From a virus (Duplodnaviria; Heunggongvirae; Uroviricota; Caudoviricetes): a DNA stretch of 43,472 nucleotides. This document shows, piece after piece, positions 1,779-43,472 of the stretch. Both the position numbers and the translations under genes were made by a program. The notes beneath the pieces were generated by a model, which saw nothing but the letters and a program-made list of their open reading frames with translations, made no database searches and had not been told where the DNA came from. Within the stretch, counting starts at the first letter, position 1. Each line of letters begins with the position of its first letter. The DNA is taken from IMG/VR virus record IMGVR_UViG_2737471820_000002; one strand, 5' to 3'.

Positions 1779-2648
<870 letters not shown>

Positions 2649-3121: not shown

Positions 3122-4213
3122 ATGAATAAAAGAAAAACGCTTTTCAATATACAAGCACTAAGGTTTATTGCTGCAGCTATGGTGGTTTTGGCACATGCCG
3201 AACTTGGACAATATGGCATTGGGAATATCGAAATCCTTGCATCTCTGGGAGGATTTGGCGTTATTATATTTTTCATAATTAGTGGGTTTATTATACCTTA
3301 CGTAGCATATGGTGGCTCTCAATCAGAAGGAGAATTCAAAATATCTGCAGGGAACTTTTTTATGCGAAGAGTAATAAGAATAATCCCGGTATATGCTTTA
3401 ATTACCGCCCTTTGCGTTCTATCAGCCTTCATAGTAAAACATTATATATCTTCCCCAACTCCACCTATTGCTTATTGGTGGCCCGAAACAAAAATCAGTC
3501 TTCAATGGTATCTTGAGAGTATTACATTCACTCACTGGCATCGCGATGCAATTCTAAGTATAGGTTGGACATTACAACTTGAATTTTTGTTTTATACTTC
3601 TTTTGCATTTTTTATTGCTATCAAATTATCAAGGTTAGAGTATATAGAGATCTTATTTTTAACTATATCCATAGTAGCTAATATTTTAACTTATCAAAAT
3701 AACAGCATCATATTCGAAATTCTTCCGTTCATGAAAACACTGGCAAGACCAGAAATGGTCGTATTTGCTATGGGTATGTTTATGTATCGATTATACTTAC
3801 TGGGCGCTATGTTAAAAAAAACAATTGCGCTTACAATATTAACTTTGTTTATTCCCACATTCTTATTATGTGAATACTTTAATATTACAACAAACATGGG
3901 GGGGGAATGGCATCGTCCTTTGATATGGGGGTTTTTCGCTTTTTATGGTGTCTGGGCAGCGTTGAGCCTTGAAGGTAAAATAAAACCGGCTAAACTTATT
4001 ATTTTCCTCGGTGATGCTTCATATAGTATATATTTGACGCATGGTTTGATTACAGCTTGGGTATCATATATGTTTGTGTCTTTCGGACTTATTGATTATT
4101 CCAATGTATTTCTATATATTGGAATATACTTTATAATAAGTTGTGCGCTTGGCAGCGTCATTCATATGTACATAGAAAAACCCATCGCAGAATTTTTAAA
4201 ACGTTTTGTTTGA
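3122..4213 (+). CDS. Acyltransferase family 3 membrane protein (OafA/Oac-like, candidate O-antigen acetylase)
   Basis: 363 aa polytopic hydrophobic protein, N-terminal FNIQALRFIAAAMVVLAHA typical of acyltransferase_3; AT-rich; sits where the alternate tail-fibre genes of a Mu-type invertible segment would be. Confidence 0.65.
   Translation: MNKRKTLFNIQALRFIAAAMVVLAHAELGQYGIGNIEILASLGGFGVIIFFIISGFIIPYVAYGGSQSEGEFKISAGNFFMRRVIRIIPVYALITALCVLSAFIVKHYISSPTPPIAYWWPETKISLQWYLESITFTHWHRDAILSIGWTLQLEFLFYTSFAFFIAIKLSRLEYIEILFLTISIVANILTYQNNSIIFEILPFMKTLARPEMVVFAMGMFMYRLYLLGAMLKKTIALTILTLFIPTFLLCEYFNITTNMGGEWHRPLIWGFFAFYGVWAALSLEGKIKPAKLIIFLGDASYSIYLTHGLITAWVSYMFVSFGLIDYSNVFLYIGIYFIISCALGSVIHMYIEKPIAEFLKRFV
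3898..3905 (+). repeat. G8 homopolymeric tract inside the acyltransferase ORF
   Basis: atgggggggggaatgg encodes M-G-G-E-W in frame; counted directly from the sequence. Confidence 0.9.
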
Positions 4214-24288: not shown

Positions 24289-24750
24289 CTATCTGCACTG
24301 CTCATTAATATACTTCTGGGTTCCTTCCAGTTGTTTTTGCATAGTGATCAGCCTCTCTCTGAGGGTGAAATAATCCCGTTCAGCGGTGTCTGCCAGTCGG
24401 GGGGAGGCTGCATTATCCACGCCGGAGGCGGTGGTGGCTTCACGCACTGACTGACAGACTGCTTTGATGTGCAACCGACGACGACCAGCGGCAACATCAT
24501 CACGCAGAGCATCATTTTCAGCTTTCGCATCAGCTAACTCCTTCGTGTATTTTGAATCGAGCGCAGCAACATCACGCTGACGCATCTGCATGTCAGTAAT
24601 TGTCGAGTTCGCCAGCTTCAGTTCTCTGGCATTTTTGTCGCGCTGGGCTTTGTAGGTAATGGCGTTATCGCGGTAATGATTAACAGCCCATGACAAGCAA
24701 ACGATGATGCAGATAACCAGAGCGGAAATAATCGCGGTTACTCTGCTCAT
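24289..24750 (-). CDS. Rz: Rz i-spanin
   Basis: 153 aa with an N-terminal TM segment, directly after the endolysin gene. Confidence 0.8.
24348..24530 (-). CDS. Rz1: Rz1 o-spanin lipoprotein, embedded within Rz in another frame
   Basis: Lipobox LVVVGC and a proline-rich [13 protein letters not shown] segment. Confidence 0.75.
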
Positions 24751-25223
24751 ACCTCAATCTCTCTGACCGTTCCGCCTGCTTCTTTGAATTTTGCAATCAG
24801 GCTGTCAGCCTTATGCTCGAACTGACCGTAACCAGCGCCCGGCAACGAAGCCCAGATATTGCTGCAACGGTCGATAGCCTGACGAATATCACCACGATCA
24901 ATCATCGGTAAAGCGCCACGTTCTTTAATCTGCTGCAATGCCACAGCGTCCTGGCTTTTGGGGGAGAAGTCTTTCAAACCAAGCTGTTTACGGTAAGCAT
25001 CCCACCAACGTGAAAGAAGCTGGTAACGTCCGGCGGCTGTTGATTTGAGTTTGGGGTTTAGCGTGACAAGTTTGCGAGGGTGATCGGAGTAATCAGTAAA
25101 TAGCTCTCCGCCTACAATGACGTCATAACCATGATTTCTGGTTTTCTGCCGTCCGTTATCCGTTCCTTCTGACCATGCAACCATATCCAGGAAAGCTTTA
25201 CGCTGGGAATTTAGTACCTGCAT
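24747..25223 (-). CDS. R: Endolysin (lambda R-type lytic transglycosylase)
   Basis: Near-identical to lambda R over its length (…[33 protein letters not shown]…). Confidence 0.9.
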
Positions 25224-25226
25224 AAA

Positions 25227-25562
25227 TTACTCCTTCGAGCTACCAAACTTGTTACCGATTACTCTCATTGCAGCCCCACGAATAGCATCGACACCGATCA
25301 GCCCCACCCCACCACCAATGGCAATAGAAAGCGATTTAGGCCATCCGACATACTCAAGCGCGGATGCAAAGGTCAACGTCAGAGCGCCACATAGCAAAAT
25401 CTCGAGCGTTTTTCGCTTCCAGCCACCACCACCGCCAAAATAGGCGATGCGCAAACCAGCCATAACAATCGACATAATCACTGCGCCCAGCGGCGTATCT
25501 CCACGCCACCAGCTCTGAAACAACTCCAGCCAGTCCGGCCAGGTATTTGGGTTATGAGGCAT
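25227..25562 (-). CDS. Putative holin
   Basis: About 111 aa with hydrophobic segments immediately upstream of the endolysin; start taken at internal ATG 25562 to avoid overlap with the methyltransferase gene. Confidence 0.5.
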   Translation of the reverse strand: MPHNPNTWPDWLELFQSWWRGDTPLGAVIMSIVMAGLRIAYFGGGGGWKRKTLEILLCGALTLTFASALEYVGWPKSLSIAIGGGVGLIGVDAIRGAAMRVIGNKFGSSKE

Positions 25563-25638
25563 TTCGTCATCTCTCACCTCGCGATATTTGCGGGTGCTGT
25601 GTTGGAAATAAAAAGGCCACGCAACGTGGCCACCAGAA

Positions 25639-26691
25639 TTATTTCCCCACCAGTTCACTTACCTCTTTCACCGTCTGATTAAACCGCTCTGACTCAAGTT
25701 CAACACCTAACGCCCGACGCCCCAGCGCCATTGCCGCTTTTATTGTGGAACCGGATCCCATAAAGAAATCAGCAACCAGATCGCCTTGTCGACTACTGGC
25801 ACTGATTATTTGCCGGAGCATATCCGCGGGCTTCTCACACGGATGTTTACCCGGGTAGAACTGAACGGGTTTATGCGTCCAGACGTCGGTATAAGGCACG
25901 GAAACTGATACGGAGAAATAGCGCCGGAGAGTTTTAAACTCATCCAGCAATTCAGAATATTTGCGATTCAGTGAATCATAAGATGCCACCAGCTGGTGGT
26001 GTGGTTGTTCCAGTTGTTGTTCCTGAAATTTCTCTGCCGCTATACGGGAAAACAGTGCCTGCAACTTCCGGTAGTCAGCCTCATTCGGCAACTGCCACTG
26101 ACTGGCACCAAACCAGTGGGAAACCATATTTTTCTTACCAGTGGCTTCGGCAATCTGTTTTGCCGTTATACCCAGTTCGGCACGAGCATCCCTGAAATAC
26201 GAAATCAGCGGTGCCATTATGTGCTGTTTGAGTTGACTTTCTTTTGCCGCATAGCCGTCACTTTTGCCGCGATATGGTCCCTGGTAATGTTCAGCAAACA
26301 GAACGCGTTCTGTTGCGGGAAAATATGCGCGCAGACTTTCTTTATTACACCCGTTCCATCGTCCGGACGGCTTCGCCCAGATAATATGGTTAAGAACGTT
26401 GAAACGTTCACGCATCATGATCTCGATATCAGATGCGAGGCGATGTCCACAGAACAGGTAAAGGCTTCCGGCAGGTTTCAGCACCCGCCAGAACTGAGCC
26501 AGACAGTGGTCCAGCCACTTCAGGTAATCTTCGTCCCCTTTCCACTGATTGTCCCAACCGTTGGGTTTCACCTTGAAGTACGGCGGATCGGTAACAATCA
26601 GGTCAATGGAATCATCAGGCAGGGACTGAATAAAATGCAGGCAATCAGCGTTGATTAAATCAGCACTGTTTATTTTCACAGTATTTTTCAT
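25639..26691 (-). CDS. DNA methyltransferase (N6A/N4C class, DPPY motif)
   Basis: IVTDPPYF motif and C-terminal FFMGSGST SAM-binding motif. Confidence 0.75.
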   Translation of the reverse strand: MKNTVKINSADLINADCLHFIQSLPDDSIDLIVTDPPYFKVKPNGWDNQWKGDEDYLKWLDHCLAQFWRVLKPAGSLYLFCGHRLASDIEIMMRERFNVLNHIIWAKPSGRWNGCNKESLRAYFPATERVLFAEHYQGPYRGKSDGYAAKESQLKQHIMAPLISYFRDARAELGITAKQIAEATGKKNMVSHWFGASQWQLPNEADYRKLQALFSRIAAEKFQEQQLEQPHHQLVASYDSLNRKYSELLDEFKTLRRYFSVSVSVPYTDVWTHKPVQFYPGKHPCEKPADMLRQIISASSRQGDLVADFFMGSGSTIKAAMALGRRALGVELESERFNQTVKEVSELVGK

Positions 26692-26840
26692 GGATCAGTA
26701 AGCGTAACTCTGGTAGGCTCACTCTGCTTTTGCGCTAAAGCAGTGGGCCGTGGTTCGCTTGTGACCAGTAAGCATGAGCGAATGGCTGGCAGGTGCTACC
26801 AACACCCACCAGCCGCCCATTTTCACAAATTAAAAGCCCT

Positions 26841-27035
26841 TCATTGCTGAAGGCGTCTGTAACAGCCGAACTGGTAATCTGCCAGCCCCGCCATAACCAG
26901 CTGGGTCAGTATTAACTGACAGCGTTCGCGTGAAAGGTATGTGTTTTGTGCAATCTCCCCGACTGTTGCCGGTTTGCCGTTTAATTCATTAAAAACAACT
27001 TTCGCCGTTTCTGTCATATCTAGCTGTTTTAGCAT
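26841..27035 (-). CDS. Hypothetical small protein
   Basis: 64 aa ORF between the porin and the methyltransferase. Confidence 0.3.
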   Translation of the reverse strand: MLKQLDMTETAKVVFNELNGKPATVGEIAQNTYLSRERCQLILTQLVMAGLADYQFGCYRRLQQ

Positions 27036-27380
27036 GTCTTTTTACCTTCATGGTTAACATGACATACCAATAACTCTTGTCTAAAAAGCCAGCAAGATAA
27101 AAAGTCAGTATTCACAACCACCAGCGTGTTTACCGTACTGCACCAGGTTTACAGGTACAAAAAAACCAGCTCGACGGCGGGTTTAAGCTGTGTGACGAAG
27201 TAACCACTCTTAACAGCATAACCAATTTTTTACGTACGTAAACCACTGAATGATATTTATGAGAATGCTACCGAGTGTTCAAAACACCACCACAAATACA
27301 TAAGAAAACCTCAACAAATAATCAATAAATAATTTCAGACGTTATTTTTAGTTGATTTAAATTAAACTGCCGAATTATAG

Positions 27381-27389
27381 CCCCCCCCC
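27381..27389. repeat. C9 homopolymeric tract in the porin upstream region
   Basis: tatag-ccccccccc-ataaat, counted directly; about 225 bp upstream of the porin ATG. Confidence 0.9.
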
Positions 27390-27613
27390 ATAAATAACAG
27401 CCATTAATATAAATTAGCTAATAGATTTATTTTTGTTCAAATAAGAGCCATAAATAGGTTTCGATAGAAAAAGTTCAGATAAAAATAGAGATCTACTTCA
27501 CAAATTAAATGAGAAACTAAAACTTACATCTTGAAATAATCACATTGATTAGATGAATATTTATCGCGCAGTGACATCATTTTTTAATAATAGTTCAAAA
27601 AAAAGGGCTCACG

Positions 27614-28696
27614 ATGAAAAAATTAACAGTGGCAATTTCTGCTGTAGCTGCATCAGTACTGATGGCGATGTCTGCTCAGGCAGCTGAAATTTATAATAAA
27701 GACAGTAACAAGCTGGATCTGTACGGGAAAGTTAATGCTAAGCACTACTTCTCCTCTAATGATGCAGATGATGGTGATACTACTTATGCCCGTCTTGGCT
27801 TCAAAGGTGAAACCCAAATCAACGATCAACTGACTGGTTTCGGTCAGTGGGAATATGAATTCAAAGGCAACCGCGCTGAATCTCAAGGTTCCTCCAAAGA
27901 CAAAACCCGTCTTGCATTTGCAGGCCTGAAATTCGGTGACTACGGCTCAATCGATTACGGCCGTAACTACGGTGTAGCATACGACATCGGTGCGTGGACT
28001 GACGTTCTGCCAGAATTCGGTGGCGATACCTGGACCCAAACAGATGTATTCATGACTGGTCGCACCACAGGTGTTGCAACTTATCGTAACAACGACTTCT
28101 TTGGTCTGGTTGATGGCCTGAACTTTGCAGCTCAGTATCAGGGCAAAAATGACCGAAATGAAGTAACTGAAGCTAATGGCGATGGTTTCGGTTTCTCAAC
28201 TACTTATGAGTATGAAGGATTCGGCGTGGGTGCAACCTATGCTAAATCTGATCGCACTAATAATCAGGTTATCTACGGTAACAACGGTCTGAATGCTTCT
28301 GGTCAAAATGCTGAAGTATGGGCAGCTGGTCTGAAATATGATGCGAACAACATCTATCTGGCCACCACCTATTCTGAAACCCAGAACATGACTGTTTTTG
28401 GTAATAACCATATTGCCAACAAAGCACAAAACTTCGAAGCTGTTGCACAATATCAGTTCGACTTCGGCCTGCGTCCATCCGTTGCTTACCTGCACTCTAA
28501 AGGAAAAGACTTGGGTGTTTGGGGTGATCAGGACCTGGTTGAATATGTTGATGTAGGTGCAACCTATTACTTCAACAAAAATATGTCCACTTTTGTTGAC
28601 TACAAAATCAACCTGATTGATAAGAGCGATTTCACGAAAGCATCTGGCGTTGCTACCGATGATATCGTTGCTGTAGGTATGGTTTACCAGTTCTAA
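27614..28696 (+). CDS. Outer membrane porin (OmpC/NmpC/Lc family)
   Basis: Signal peptide [30 protein letters not shown]...LDLYGK start and C-terminal ...VGMVYQF beta-barrel signature; long AT-rich leader. Confidence 0.85.
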
Positions 28697-28832
28697 TTTG
28701 ATTACTAAAAGATATGTTGTGGGAGGCTTTGCCTCCCCAACATATAAGTGGCTCCCTCAAGCCACTTCCTTTAGAAGCACAACCTTGCTTCTAACTATAC
28801 AAACCTTCTGTTATATATTACCCTTTATTTTT

Positions 28833-28858
28833 GGGGGCGTTTCAACGCCCCATTTTTA
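28833..28858 (+). terminator. Rho-independent terminator downstream of the porin gene
   Basis: gggggcg-tttcaa-cgcccc followed by attttt. Confidence 0.6.
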
Positions 28859-28884
28859 ATAACTTTTAGTAAATAATTGGCGTA

Positions 28885-29268
28885 TTAATTAGAGTTATTA
28901 ACAACGATATCCATCTCTAACCGGATATCTAATGCCATTAACATCCCTTCAATTATGCCCTCAGCCTTTTGTAACCTTTTCCCGATATAACCATCAGAGC
29001 AGCAATGCTTACCTGCCAGTGACATGAATGTCATACCGACTATATAATAATCTACTAATAAATCGTGCAAATCGCTGTTGTTCTTTTTCAGACGGGCCAT
29101 GCACCCGCAAATGATCATCGCGTCATCGTCACAACATTGCGGGCGAGATTTTACTTTTGAAGGAATTAATCCCTTAAAACCGGCGGCAATGGACGACCAG
29201 GTCACATCTTCATGATTATTAGCCGCCCACGCTCCCCAACGCTCAAGAACCATCTGAATATCACGCAT
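28885..29268 (-). CDS. Q: Late antiterminator Q (phage 82 / DLP12 QuuD type)
   Basis: [22 protein letters not shown]... with a Cys cluster, matching DLP12 Q; start taken at the internal ATG. Confidence 0.75.
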
Positions 29269-29356
29269 CAACTTACTCCACAAAAATCAGACCAAAACGC
29301 CAATTACAAGCAAAAATCAACAAAACAGTATTAGTTGATTGTTATCTCTGACTTCA

Positions 29357-40652: not shown

Positions 40653-40974
40653 GGCCTGTCAGTTTCTTAAGATATCCAGACCAACCGCCACCAACTGGAT
40701 ACGAACAGGCCGCCTACAGGCAACACGCAAAGACCCCACTAAACCAAAATCTCCTTACCTCACAACGCGACAAGCCTGCATTGCGGCGCTTCAGTCTCCG
40801 CTGCATACTATCAAGGTGAGCGCGGGTGATGGCATAACAGAGGAAAGAAAATGTCACTCTTCCGCAGAAGTGAAATATGGTACGCCAGTTTCACATTGCC
40901 GAACGGTAAAAGATTTAAACAGTCTCTTGGAACAAAGGACAAAAGGCAGGCGACAGAGCTCCATGACAAGCTAA
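40624..40974 (+). CDS. xis: Excisionase (AlpA/Xis-like HTH); 3' boundary uncertain
   Basis: [36 protein letters not shown] is an Xis-type HTH; overlaps the int 5' end as lambda xis does. Confidence 0.5.
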
Positions 40975-42014
40975 AGGCTGAAGCATGGCGGGTCAGCAAA
41001 CTTGGTGAAATACCTGATATGACGTTTGAGGAAGCGTGTGTCAGGTGGCTCGAAGAGAAAGCACATAAAAAATCACTGGACGATGACAAAAGCCGGATCG
41101 GATTCTGGCTTCAACATTTCGCAGGAATGCAACTAAGAGACATTACTGAATCAAAAATTTATTCAGCAATGCAGAAAATGACGAACCGGCGTCATGAGGA
41201 AAACTGGAAACTCAGGGCAGAAGCATGCAGAAAAAAAGGGAAACCTGTTCCAGAATACACGCCAAAACCAGCGTCCGTTGCAACGAAGGCTACGCATCTT
41301 TCATTTATAAAGGCCCTACTAAGAGCCGCAGAGCGTGAATGGAAAATGCTGGATAAGGCACCAATTATTAAAGTGCCTCAACCAAAGAATAAACGGATCC
41401 GCTGGCTGGAGCCCCATGAAGCACAAAGGCTGATTGATGAATGTCCGGAGCCATTAAAGTCTGTTGTTGAATTTGCACTGGCAACAGGCTTAAGACGCTC
41501 GAACATCATCAACCTTGAATGGCAACAAATAGATATGCAGCGCCGGGTGGCATGGATAAACCCGGAAGAGAGTAAATCAAACCGCGCAATTGGCGTTGCG
41601 CTGAATGATACTGCATGTCGCGTATTGAAAAAACAAATCGGGAATCATCACCGTTGGGTATTTGTGTACAAGGAAAGCTGTACCAAACCAGACGGAACGA
41701 AAGCGCCAACAGTAAGGAAGATGCGGTATGACGCAAACACAGCCTGGAAAGCGGCGCTGAGACGGGCTGGTATTGATGATTTCAGATTTCACGACTTGAG
41801 ACACACCTGGGCAAGTTGGCTGGTTCAAGCCGGAGTCCCGTTGTCAGTGTTACAGGAAATGGGAGGCTGGGAGTCTATCGAAATGGTTCGTCGATATGCT
41901 CACCTTGCACCTAATCACCTTACCGAACACGCACGGCAAATAGACTCGATCCTGAACCCATCGGTCCCAAATTTGTCCCAGTCAAAAAATAAGGAAGGTA
42001 CTAATGATGTGTAA
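40851..42014 (+). CDS. int: Tyrosine integrase
   Basis: 387 aa; C-terminal [10 protein letters not shown]...VRRYAH catalytic motifs; adjacent to the tRNA 3' end. Confidence 0.9.
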
Positions 42015-42028
42015 CTTATTGATTTTAA

Positions 42029-42104
42029 TGGTGCCGATAATAGGAGTCGAACCTACGACCTTCGCATTACGAATGCGCTGCTCTACCAACTGAGCTATAT
42101 CGGC
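42029..42104 (-). tRNA. thrW: tRNA-Thr (anticodon CGU)
   Basis: Minus-strand sequence GCCGATATAGCTCAGTTGGTAGAGCAGCGCATTCGTAATGCGAAGGTCGTAGGTTCGACTCCTATTATCGGCACCA has GTTCGA T-loop, anticodon CGT flanked by T and A, and 3' CCA. Confidence 0.85.
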
Positions 42105-42218
42105 CCTGAAAGGACATGTTCACGAACGTGAATCACGGTGGACAAGGTTAAAACTAACCGGGCGATGCGTCAATGGCCTTGTGAATCAAATGGCTACTTT
42201 TGCATCACCCGGTTTTAT

Positions 42219-43472
42219 TTACGCACGAATGGTGTAATCACCAATGCCGATCCACTTGTAAGTGGTCAGTGCTTCCAGCCCCATTGGGCCACGCGCGTGG
42301 AGTTTTTGTGTGCTTACCGCCACTTCCGCACCCAGACCAAACTGGCCGCCGTCGGTAAAACGCGTAGAGGCGTTAACGTAAACAGCGGACGAATCCACTT
42401 CGTTAACAAAACGCTGGGCGTTGCGCATATCGCGGGTCAGGATCGCATCGGAGTGTTGTGTGCCGTGTTCACGAATATGGGCGATGGCATCGTCAAGATC
42501 GCTGACGATTTTGACGTTCAAATCTAATGACAGAAACTCATCGTCATACTCTTCGGCTTTAACAGCAACCACCTTCGCAGGGCCTGCCTGCAACTGCGCC
42601 AGTGCAGCTGCATCTGCGTGTAATGTCACGCCGCTTTCCGCCATTTGTTTGCTTAATGCGGGCAGGAAGCTATCGGCGATGTTTTTATTCACCAGCAACG
42701 TTTCAACCGTATTACATGTGCTCGGACGCTGAGTTTTCGCGTTGACGATCACTTTTAATGCTTCAGCGATCTCTACACTTTCATCAACGTAAATATGGCA
42801 TACGCCTATACCACCTGTGATCACCGGGATTGTCGACTGTTCACGGCACAGTTTATGCAAACCAGCGCCACCACGCGGGATCAGCATGTCGATGTATTTA
42901 TCCATACGCAGCATTTCACTGACCAGCGCACGGTCAGGATTATCAATCGCCTGCACGGCACCCGCCGGTAAGCCGCAGGATTTCAGGGCGTCCTGAATCA
43001 CCGCCACCGTTGCAGCGTTAGTGCGACACGTTTCTTTGCCACCGCGCAGGATCACCGCATTACCGGTTTTCAGGCACAGCGAAGCGACATCAACCGTCAC
43101 GTTCGGGCGCGCTTCATAAATCACGCCAATAACCCCCAGCGGTACGCGACGACGCTCAAGACGCAGGCCGCTGTCCAGTACGCCGCCATCGATTACCTGC
43201 CCCACCGGATCGGCGAGGTTGCACACCTGACGTACATCGTCGGCAATGCCTTTCAGCCGTGCGGGCGTCAGTGCCAGACGGTCAAGCATCGCTTCGCTAA
43301 GGCCATTGGCTCGCGCGTCAGCAACATCCTGGGCGTTAGCGTTGAGGATGATTTCGCTTTGTGCTTCCAGTTCATCGGCGATTTTTTCCAGCACGCGATT
43401 TTTTTCGCGGCTGGAGAGTTGCGCTAATTTATACGAGGCTTGCTTCGCGGCAATGCCCATTTGTTCCAGCAT
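42219..43472 (-). CDS. proA: Gamma-glutamyl phosphate reductase
   Basis: 417 aa, complete, recognisable as E. coli ProA over its whole length. Confidence 0.95.

Follow-up and report, generated by a model that had tools for sequence, protein, structure and literature searches.

The closest described relatives of the locus analysed here are the lc gene carried by phage PA-2 and the nmpC gene of the cryptic prophage DLP12 (qsr'), in which, as in the present case, a porin gene transcribed from the opposite strand is placed between the late antiterminator gene Q and the lysis genes, downstream of a CRP/OmpR-regulated promoter. For the nmpC promoter of K-12 (PnmpC), 5' RACE with a primer located ~200 nt inside ins5A yielded a 1.4 kb product and a transcription start site (TSS) at a 'G', stated to be equal to the previously reported TSS (PMC11677980). 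In the same study the promoter was deleted as the segment -199 to -1 or replaced as the segment -210 to -1, relative to the ATG, and it is reportedly under the control of Crp, OmpR, IHF and MprA (PMC11677980). For the lysis operon of DLP12, the regulatory region has been cloned as '-121 to +650' relative to a TSS that was taken from Rueggeberg et al. (2015) and is reportedly RpoE-regulated (PMC7918800).

A second comparison is with promoter-spacer homopolymer phase variation, known for example from Neisseria porA and opc, from Bordetella fim with its C-stretch and from nspA with its poly-A tract; what the window has in common with it is a G/C homopolymer ahead of an outer-membrane protein gene, with a length that differs among close strains. 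In these genes the tract is located between the -35 and -10 elements, or between an activator site and the -10 element, and long tracts are the rule. Promoter-tract phase variation of this kind is dealt with in two further sources (PMC6389960; PMC1891110), and length-dependent expression has been demonstrated for Neisseria meningitidis nadA, which carries a distal tetranucleotide repeat of many units (PMC2791445). Like the tract described below, the nadA repeat lies upstream of the core promoter and between regulator sites, the spacing of which it could alter.

The stretch of DNA under analysis, hereafter the window, comprises 43,472 nt of a lambdoid prophage and its surroundings and contains a run of nine C residues (C9) upstream of an Lc/NmpC-type porin gene. 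The 450 bp region upstream of the porin is 92-94% identical between lc or nmpC and the window, and its most diverged part is the 40 bp to the left of a short variable slot, which reads AGCACTT (7 nt) in lc and nmpC and C9, 2 bp longer, in the window. In comparison with porA, opc, fim and nspA, the tract of the window is remote from the TSS, which it precedes by ~180 bp; most alleles lack it, and its length stays at or below 9 nt. It differs from the nadA repeat in that the spacing is otherwise not conserved. Both the porin cassette with its promoter and the divergent lysis promoter are already known, and the C-run polymorphism, no mention of which was found in the literature searched, is a new instance of a familiar instability. 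The evidence points, with a probability of roughly 0.7, to the C9 tract being a neutral or nearly neutral replication-slippage hotspot, that is, a recently expanded, length-unstable and rare derived allele. Most likely the tract did not evolve as a device for turning the porin on and off or for setting its level, and we infer that it has no regulatory role.

The porin cassette and its prophage setting

The genes that define the setting of the tract are the following.

24747-25223, minus strand: lysozyme
within 25227-25658, minus strand: lambda-family holin
25639-26691, minus strand: N6/N4 DNA methyltransferase
26841-27035, minus strand: 64-aa ORF, no Pfam match
27614-28696, plus strand: intact Lc/NmpC-type porin gene, 360 aa (ORF; Pfam Porin_1, E = 3.6e-152)
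28697-28860, plus strand: porin 3' UTR with three hairpins and an intrinsic terminator, stem at 28834-28851 (alignment; terminator scan)
28885-29283, minus strand: late antiterminator Q, QuuD type (Phage_antitermQ, E = 1.2e-53; RefSeq annotation of the E89 locus)
40851-42014, plus strand: tyrosine integrase, adjoining tRNA-Thr(CGT) at 42029-42104 on the minus strand

The porin shares 330 of 365 residues with PA-2 Lc (90%), and its gene displays the features of the Lc/NmpC cassette of lambdoid phages: an OmpC-family product, a position between Q and the lysis genes, transcription in the opposite direction and, in common with lc and nmpC, an upstream region with CRP sites, a core promoter and a 3' UTR. 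Positions 27161-27700 are 93.9% identical to PA-2 lc (J02580) and 92.1% identical to DLP12/434B nmpC, and a search of 5,426 complete E. coli genomes found this region in 3,699. In alignment, the 3' UTR hardly differs from those of lc and nmpC, and it gave no Rfam match over 28697-28860; we take it to be the region reported as ipeX. The ipeX RNA is said to repress OmpC/OmpF, an effect attributed to Castillo-Keller et al. in 2006. IpeX is also listed among the regulators of ompC (PMC5745476).

Genes of the ylcG/rusA type, typical of the nin region, come after Q. The junction between the integrase and tRNA-Thr marks the prophage attachment site at the tRNA-Thr gene, and a host gene of the aldehyde-dehydrogenase family follows the tRNA within the 40851-43472 region. 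On the other side of the porin, DLP12 has an S21-type holin directly after the cassette, whereas in the window the 64-aa ORF and the methyltransferase precede a lambda-type holin. These two genes (25639-27035, minus strand) are inserted between the hairpin of the late leader and the holin; the insertion is also found in E. coli E89 and is absent from the arrangements of DLP12, PA-2 and ECCHD184.

Placement of the C9 tract among the mapped promoters

Direct reading of the window places nine C residues at 27381-27389 of the plus strand, where positions 27380-27390 read G CCCCCCCCC A, and 225 nt separate the end of the tract from the porin ATG at 27614. The surrounding 364 bp (27250-27613) have a G+C content of 28%. 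The first-pass annotation was accordingly right in reporting a nine-C run ~225 bp before the start of a porin gene carried by a prophage, and in calling the DNA around the run AT-rich; the porin is attested by the Porin_1 match and the prophage by its lambdoid character. C9 is the longest homopolymer of the 43.5 kb window, followed by four runs of 8 nt, one of G and three of A. Given the composition of the window, C runs of at least 9 nt are expected 0.14-0.21 times (first-order Markov and iid estimates), and the local G+C content makes the run even more unusual; base composition alone does not account for it as a chance feature.

The elements of the upstream region are listed below; those of the core promoter and of the lysis/late promoter are placed by homology.

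27159-27190, minus strand: terminator-like hairpin (CAGCUU...GAGCUG) followed by U7 (sequence reading; no call in the terminator scan)
27188-27208, plus strand: distal CRP site, annotated in PA-2 J02580, 21/21 identical, centre ~368 bp upstream of the TSS
27373-27380, plus strand: left flank of the slot, AATTATAG, used as search anchor; PA-2 reads AATCATAG
27381-27389, plus strand: variable slot, C9 (G9 on the minus strand), read directly
27390-27402, plus strand: right flank of the slot, ATAAATAACAGCC, used as search anchor; the same in the window, E89, PA-2 and 434B/DLP12
27485-27505, minus strand: proximal CRP site, annotated in PA-2 J02580, 21/21 identical, centre 71 bp before G27566
27531-27573, plus strand: core promoter of the porin, placed through homology with K-12 PnmpC
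27531-27536, plus strand: porin -35 element, TTGAAA (promoter scan: TTGAAA-19-AATATT)
~27554-27561, plus strand: porin -10 region, AATATT type
within 27566-27573, plus strand: porin TSS 'G', transferred from K-12 by homology through primer sequences and amplicon lengths
27565-27596, minus strand: divergent lysis/late promoter by homology to DLP12, with GAACT (27596 to 27592), N17, TCACT (27574 to 27570) and the TSS at 27565

The position of the porin start follows from the primers published for K-12. The arm used for terminator insertion (primer PnmpC-T-P1) ends in ...gaatatttatcgcgcagtg, also given as ...cttgaaataatcacattgattagatgaatatttatcgcgcagtg, and corresponds to 27530-27573 of the window (PMC11677980), so that the 'G' start must be one of 27566, 27568, 27571 and 27573. 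The upstream homology arms for deletion or replacement of PnmpC read ...aattatagAGCACTTataaataacagcc... and contain the K-12 slot (AGCACTT, -231 to -225 from the ATG), which therefore lies just outside the -199/-210 to -1 promoter segment. By this homology, the 5' UTR of the porin is predicted to be 41-48 nt long and the tract to lie 177-192 bp upstream of the TSS, between the two annotated CRP sites and outside the 5' UTR, the core promoter and the -35/-10 spacer. A CRP spacing of -71, such as that of the proximal site, fits a class I CRP-activated promoter. The distal CRP site is part of a near-invariant block (27180-27240), and the core promoter segment is almost invariant, with a column entropy of at most 0.04 bits among 92 distinct alleles and likewise between K-12 and the window. 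The built-in promoter/terminator scan missed even the known PnmpC and is for this reason uninformative in the porin upstream region.

This geometry does not agree with the proposal that the tract belongs to the leader or to the promoter of the porin, where slippage might change promoter strength. The leader is far too short to reach it and the promoter segment defined in K-12 stops short of it; the first-pass annotation had itself named a TSS that left the tract outside any promoter or UTR element as the first of two points that would count against its reading, and the K-12-derived TSS does precisely that for the porin. Nor does the tract occupy the -35/-10 spacer or the interval between an activator site and the -10 element, as it would in a phase-variable promoter.

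On the minus strand, the primers of the cloned lysis-operon region are separated by 771 bp in the K-12-type locus (= 121 + 650), which sets +1 at position 2773 of L003, equivalent to 27565 of the window (PMC7918800). The porin and the lysis/late transcripts start back-to-back (27566-27573 and 27565, respectively) from one common start region, and the promoter elements of each unit fall inside the transcribed leader of the other. The arrangement GAACT-N17-TCACT resembles the sigmaE promoter consensus. Read from this start, the tract would be a G9 run at about +176 to +184 of a long untranslated lysis/late leader, and the hairpin with its U7 tail, located where homology to DLP12 and PA-2 ends on the left (27161), could be a tR'-like terminator of that leader. 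The minimum free energies of the predicted leader folds are -86.1 (C9), -85.8 (C8), -85.8 (C7), -84.2 (AACCCCC) and -80.5 kcal/mol (AGCACTT), and across these five slot alleles the predicted fold showed no change dependent on tract length, the 3' hairpin region being unchanged. An attenuator or antiterminator based on pairing of the G run with a C-rich hairpin loop near 27175 was considered and rejected, as folding gives it no support.

No ORF of at least 20 aa overlaps 27330-27440 on either strand, and a frameshift switch in a coding sequence was rejected given the absence of a small ORF across the tract. Rfam and tRNA scans gave no match at or near the tract. A TATAAT hexamer on the minus strand (27379 to 27374) abuts the G run.

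Alleles of the slot among strains

In PA-2 lc and in DLP12/434B nmpC, the slot, bounded by AATTATAG and ATAAATAACAGCC, has the sequence AGCACTT and thus no C run. In E89, the closest complete genome (99.4% identical), it reads A+C8, a substitution that preserves the length of C9. Among the matches listed for IMG/VR, 123 loci were compared, in a sample in which the immediate flanks are fixed by construction, the left flank AATTATAG being a search anchor and its apparent invariance therefore built in, and in which long alleles are enriched. Within this listed set AGCACTT accounts for 65 of the 123 loci, AACCCCC for 24, AGCGCTT for nine, AACCACC for eight and ACCCCCC for three, the remainder being rarer forms. 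Slots of 8-30 nt in IMG/VR comprise AC7 (two loci), C8 (one), AC8 (one) and C9 (one); these scans found no slot longer than 9 nt at the porin locus, and an unrelated 19-nt spacer that they returned (L028) was discarded as a chance match. Scans of metagenomes and species representatives with a gapped pattern added one genuine AC7 (L136) and two 7-nt alleles from E. coli, almost all of their other matches being chance ones with long gaps.

The complete E. coli genomes (n = 5,426) were queried with a 54-nt sequence independent of haplotype. The C-rich allele family is present in 466 of them, and C9, as an exact match, in three. C8 was recognized in two genomes by a 53-nt span and AC8 in one, E89; nine genomes with two differences from the query are consistent with C7 or AC7, and ~390 of the 466 C-rich genomes, with four differences, are consistent with the interrupted 7-nt slot AACCCCC. 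C10 or longer was found in none of the 5,426 genomes. The comparison of tract length among strains advocated in the first-pass annotation thus reveals a real polymorphism, in which AC6, C7, AC7, C8, AC8 and C9 occur between near-identical flanks. Indeed, a single 360-nt flank haplotype, with the slot masked, carries C7, AC6, AC7, AC8 and C9. Long runs, C9 included, are found in two local haplotypes and two prophage contexts, and, apart from the window, four independent assemblies carry C9.

Two sister isolates of E. coli from one study, Z1323HEC0399 and Z1323HEC0422, are identical across 16,054 bp except for one SNP and the run itself, which is C9 in one isolate and C8 in the other, a length difference that could be a homopolymer assembly error. 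Length therefore varies among close strains and, sequencing error being possible for this single sister pair, perhaps within them, as would be expected of a contingency locus; the long tract, on the other hand, is not a conserved state of the population, given how few genomes carry C9 and how many carry the interrupted heptamer. The SNP of the sister pair is located in the gene for the large terminase subunit, the C run sits in a DLP12-like prophage (emrE, ybcK, essD), and the porin gene is intact in both isolates, whereas that of K-12 is interrupted by IS5.

The slot is the 10-nt bin of highest entropy in the 460-nt upstream region (0.70 bits, compared with 0.00-0.41 elsewhere). An A5/A6 polymorphism at 27470, with alleles split 71/58, renders the distal-proximal spacing polymorphic in any case, by 1 bp in ~45% of alleles.

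Origin of the tract and its possible consequences

The reading as a neutral hotspot rests on direct observations, namely where the tract lies, which alleles exist, how rare C9 is and how far the tract is from the starts mapped in K-12. The common slot state of this allele family, the C-rich heptamer AACCCCC, would have been converted by edge substitutions into ACCCCCC and then CCCCCCC, a probable order of steps, and one-base slippage from C7 would have given rise to the 8- and 9-nt forms; the consequence would be none, or a small quantitative one through the change of 1-2 bp in distal spacing. The rate of indels in E. coli grows exponentially with homopolymer length (PMC8510543), and the one-base gains and losses of the C run are in keeping with this dependence. 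Ordinary homopolymer hotspots of E. coli display the same one-base steps on identical backgrounds, are intergenic and are under no detectable constraint, the sole oddity of the window being a 9-nt G:C run in DNA of 28% G+C. Unlike the setting of nadA, the host is a mismatch-repair-proficient species, in which slow switching would be expected of a run of 9 nt.

Since so few genomes carry C9, porin regulation is likely to be independent of the tract, and since both lc of PA-2 and nmpC of DLP12 were characterized with AGCACTT in the slot, the C run appears to be dispensable. An evolved contingency locus is unlikely because the long run is rare and derived, because porins work without it and because it never exceeds 9 nt, and also because it occupies the least conserved spot of the region, outside the core promoter, where spacing is polymorphic anyway. 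On the other hand, the slot may overlap an OmpR, IHF or MprA site of PnmpC, which would count against neutrality, and the presence of C9 in two haplotypes and two prophage contexts could mean that long runs have repeatedly been selected, beyond what mutation pressure or recombination would produce by themselves.

Among the alternatives, the one deserving most attention, although unlikely, is that the slot modulates distal spacing: with 8 or 9 bp in place of 7, the distal CRP site (~-368) and any contacts made by OmpR, IHF or H-NS would be rotated with respect to the core promoter and its proximal CRP site, tuning transcription of the Lc-type porin quantitatively, and nine G:C pairs might interrupt an AT-rich H-NS/IHF tract. 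The location of the tract between two CRP sites fully conserved with PA-2, the reported control of PnmpC by Crp, OmpR, IHF and MprA (PMC11677980), the existence of slot length variants and the precedent of the nadA distal repeat (PMC2791445) are all compatible with such a role, and the near-invariance of the distal block suggests function. Conservation of that block is, however, explained equally well by the late leader and terminator of the minus strand, while the A5/A6 polymorphism argues against strict phasing and the slot is not slippery in the vast majority of alleles. The stronger version of this idea, a phage-carried tuning device in which one-base slippage in the interval from the distal to the proximal CRP site (or between OmpR/IHF sites) re-phases the upstream elements, as in a nadA-like distal-spacing contingency locus, is a long shot. 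We know of no such locus in E. coli or in a phage element of this type. If it were true, it would be a rare case of simple-sequence contingency in E. coli, providing heritable and reversible variation of a phage-encoded porin, which serves phages as a receptor and antibiotics as a way into the cell; subpopulations of lysogens would differ in Lc-type porin, in repression of OmpC/OmpF through the 3' UTR, or in the lysis/late leader. As things stand, the natural series of 7-, 8- and 9-bp slots in otherwise identical backgrounds, between mapped regulatory elements of lc/nmpC, could be used as a ready-made spacing experiment.

Consequences for the minus strand are improbable. The DLP12 lysis TSS maps to 27565, with a sigmaE-like promoter upstream of it, and the tract is consequently expected to be transcribed on this strand, where G9 in the divergent lysis/late leader, or in a Q-modified late transcript, would affect pausing, the folding or stability of the RNA, or how far transcription continues into the 64-aa ORF, the methyltransferase and the lysis genes; yet the predicted folds of the C9, C8, C7 and AACCCCC leaders lie within 2 kcal/mol of one another with the same 3' hairpin region, and most alleles lack the G run altogether. 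No G-run-specific mechanism is known to us for a leader of this type. Still less credible is a cryptic minus-strand promoter that expansion would switch down by lengthening its spacer from 17 bp (7-nt slots) to 19 bp (C9). This layout resembles classical spacer-tract phase variation, and the perfect TATAAT adjoining the G run is accompanied by a weak -35 element, ATGGCT; the latter, however, matches at only 3/6 positions (2/6 for ACGGCT in K-12), the -10 element of PA-2 is TATGAT, so that the arrangement is not conserved in K-12 or PA-2, and one TATAAT per ~360 bp of DNA with 28% G+C is, by a rough estimate, about what chance would give. A stricter promoter scan made no call at this position, and no published TSS was found there. 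There is, finally, a very slight chance that the run length and the strain differences are long-read homopolymer errors, as the sister isolates are told apart, at C9/C8, by one indel in a homopolymer, and errors of this type are the most frequent in long reads. The recurrence of C9 in independent assemblies and the graded series AC6, C7, AC7, C8 and AC8 in many assemblies from different projects and collections speak against an artefact, as does the difference between A+C8 and C9, which is a substitution and not an error of homopolymer length.

A general lesson of the neutral-hotspot reading is that an upstream homopolymer should be placed against a mapped TSS before a promoter switch is called. 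By position, a better candidate than C9 for an effect on expression is an A8 run at 27597-27604, which lies in the porin 5' UTR directly 5' of the Shine-Dalgarno sequence (AAAAAAAAGGGCTCACGATG) and, on the minus strand, constitutes a T8 run just upstream of the sigmaE-like -35 element. It is polymorphic among 136 loci, with A8 in 88, A7 in 47 and A6 in one. Further homopolymers are found in coding sequences of the window: a LEM-3-like GIY-YIG nuclease-domain ORF (1824-2648, plus strand) carries A8 (2579-2586) and A7 (2603-2609) runs near its 3' end, and an Acyl_transf_3 ORF of the O-antigen acyltransferase type (3122-4213, plus strand), near the prophage end, contains A8 (3814-3821) and G8 (3898-3905) runs. 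Judging from its sequence, this last ORF may be a surface-modifying accessory gene (moron) with frameshift-prone runs and may exist as on and off alleles among strains.
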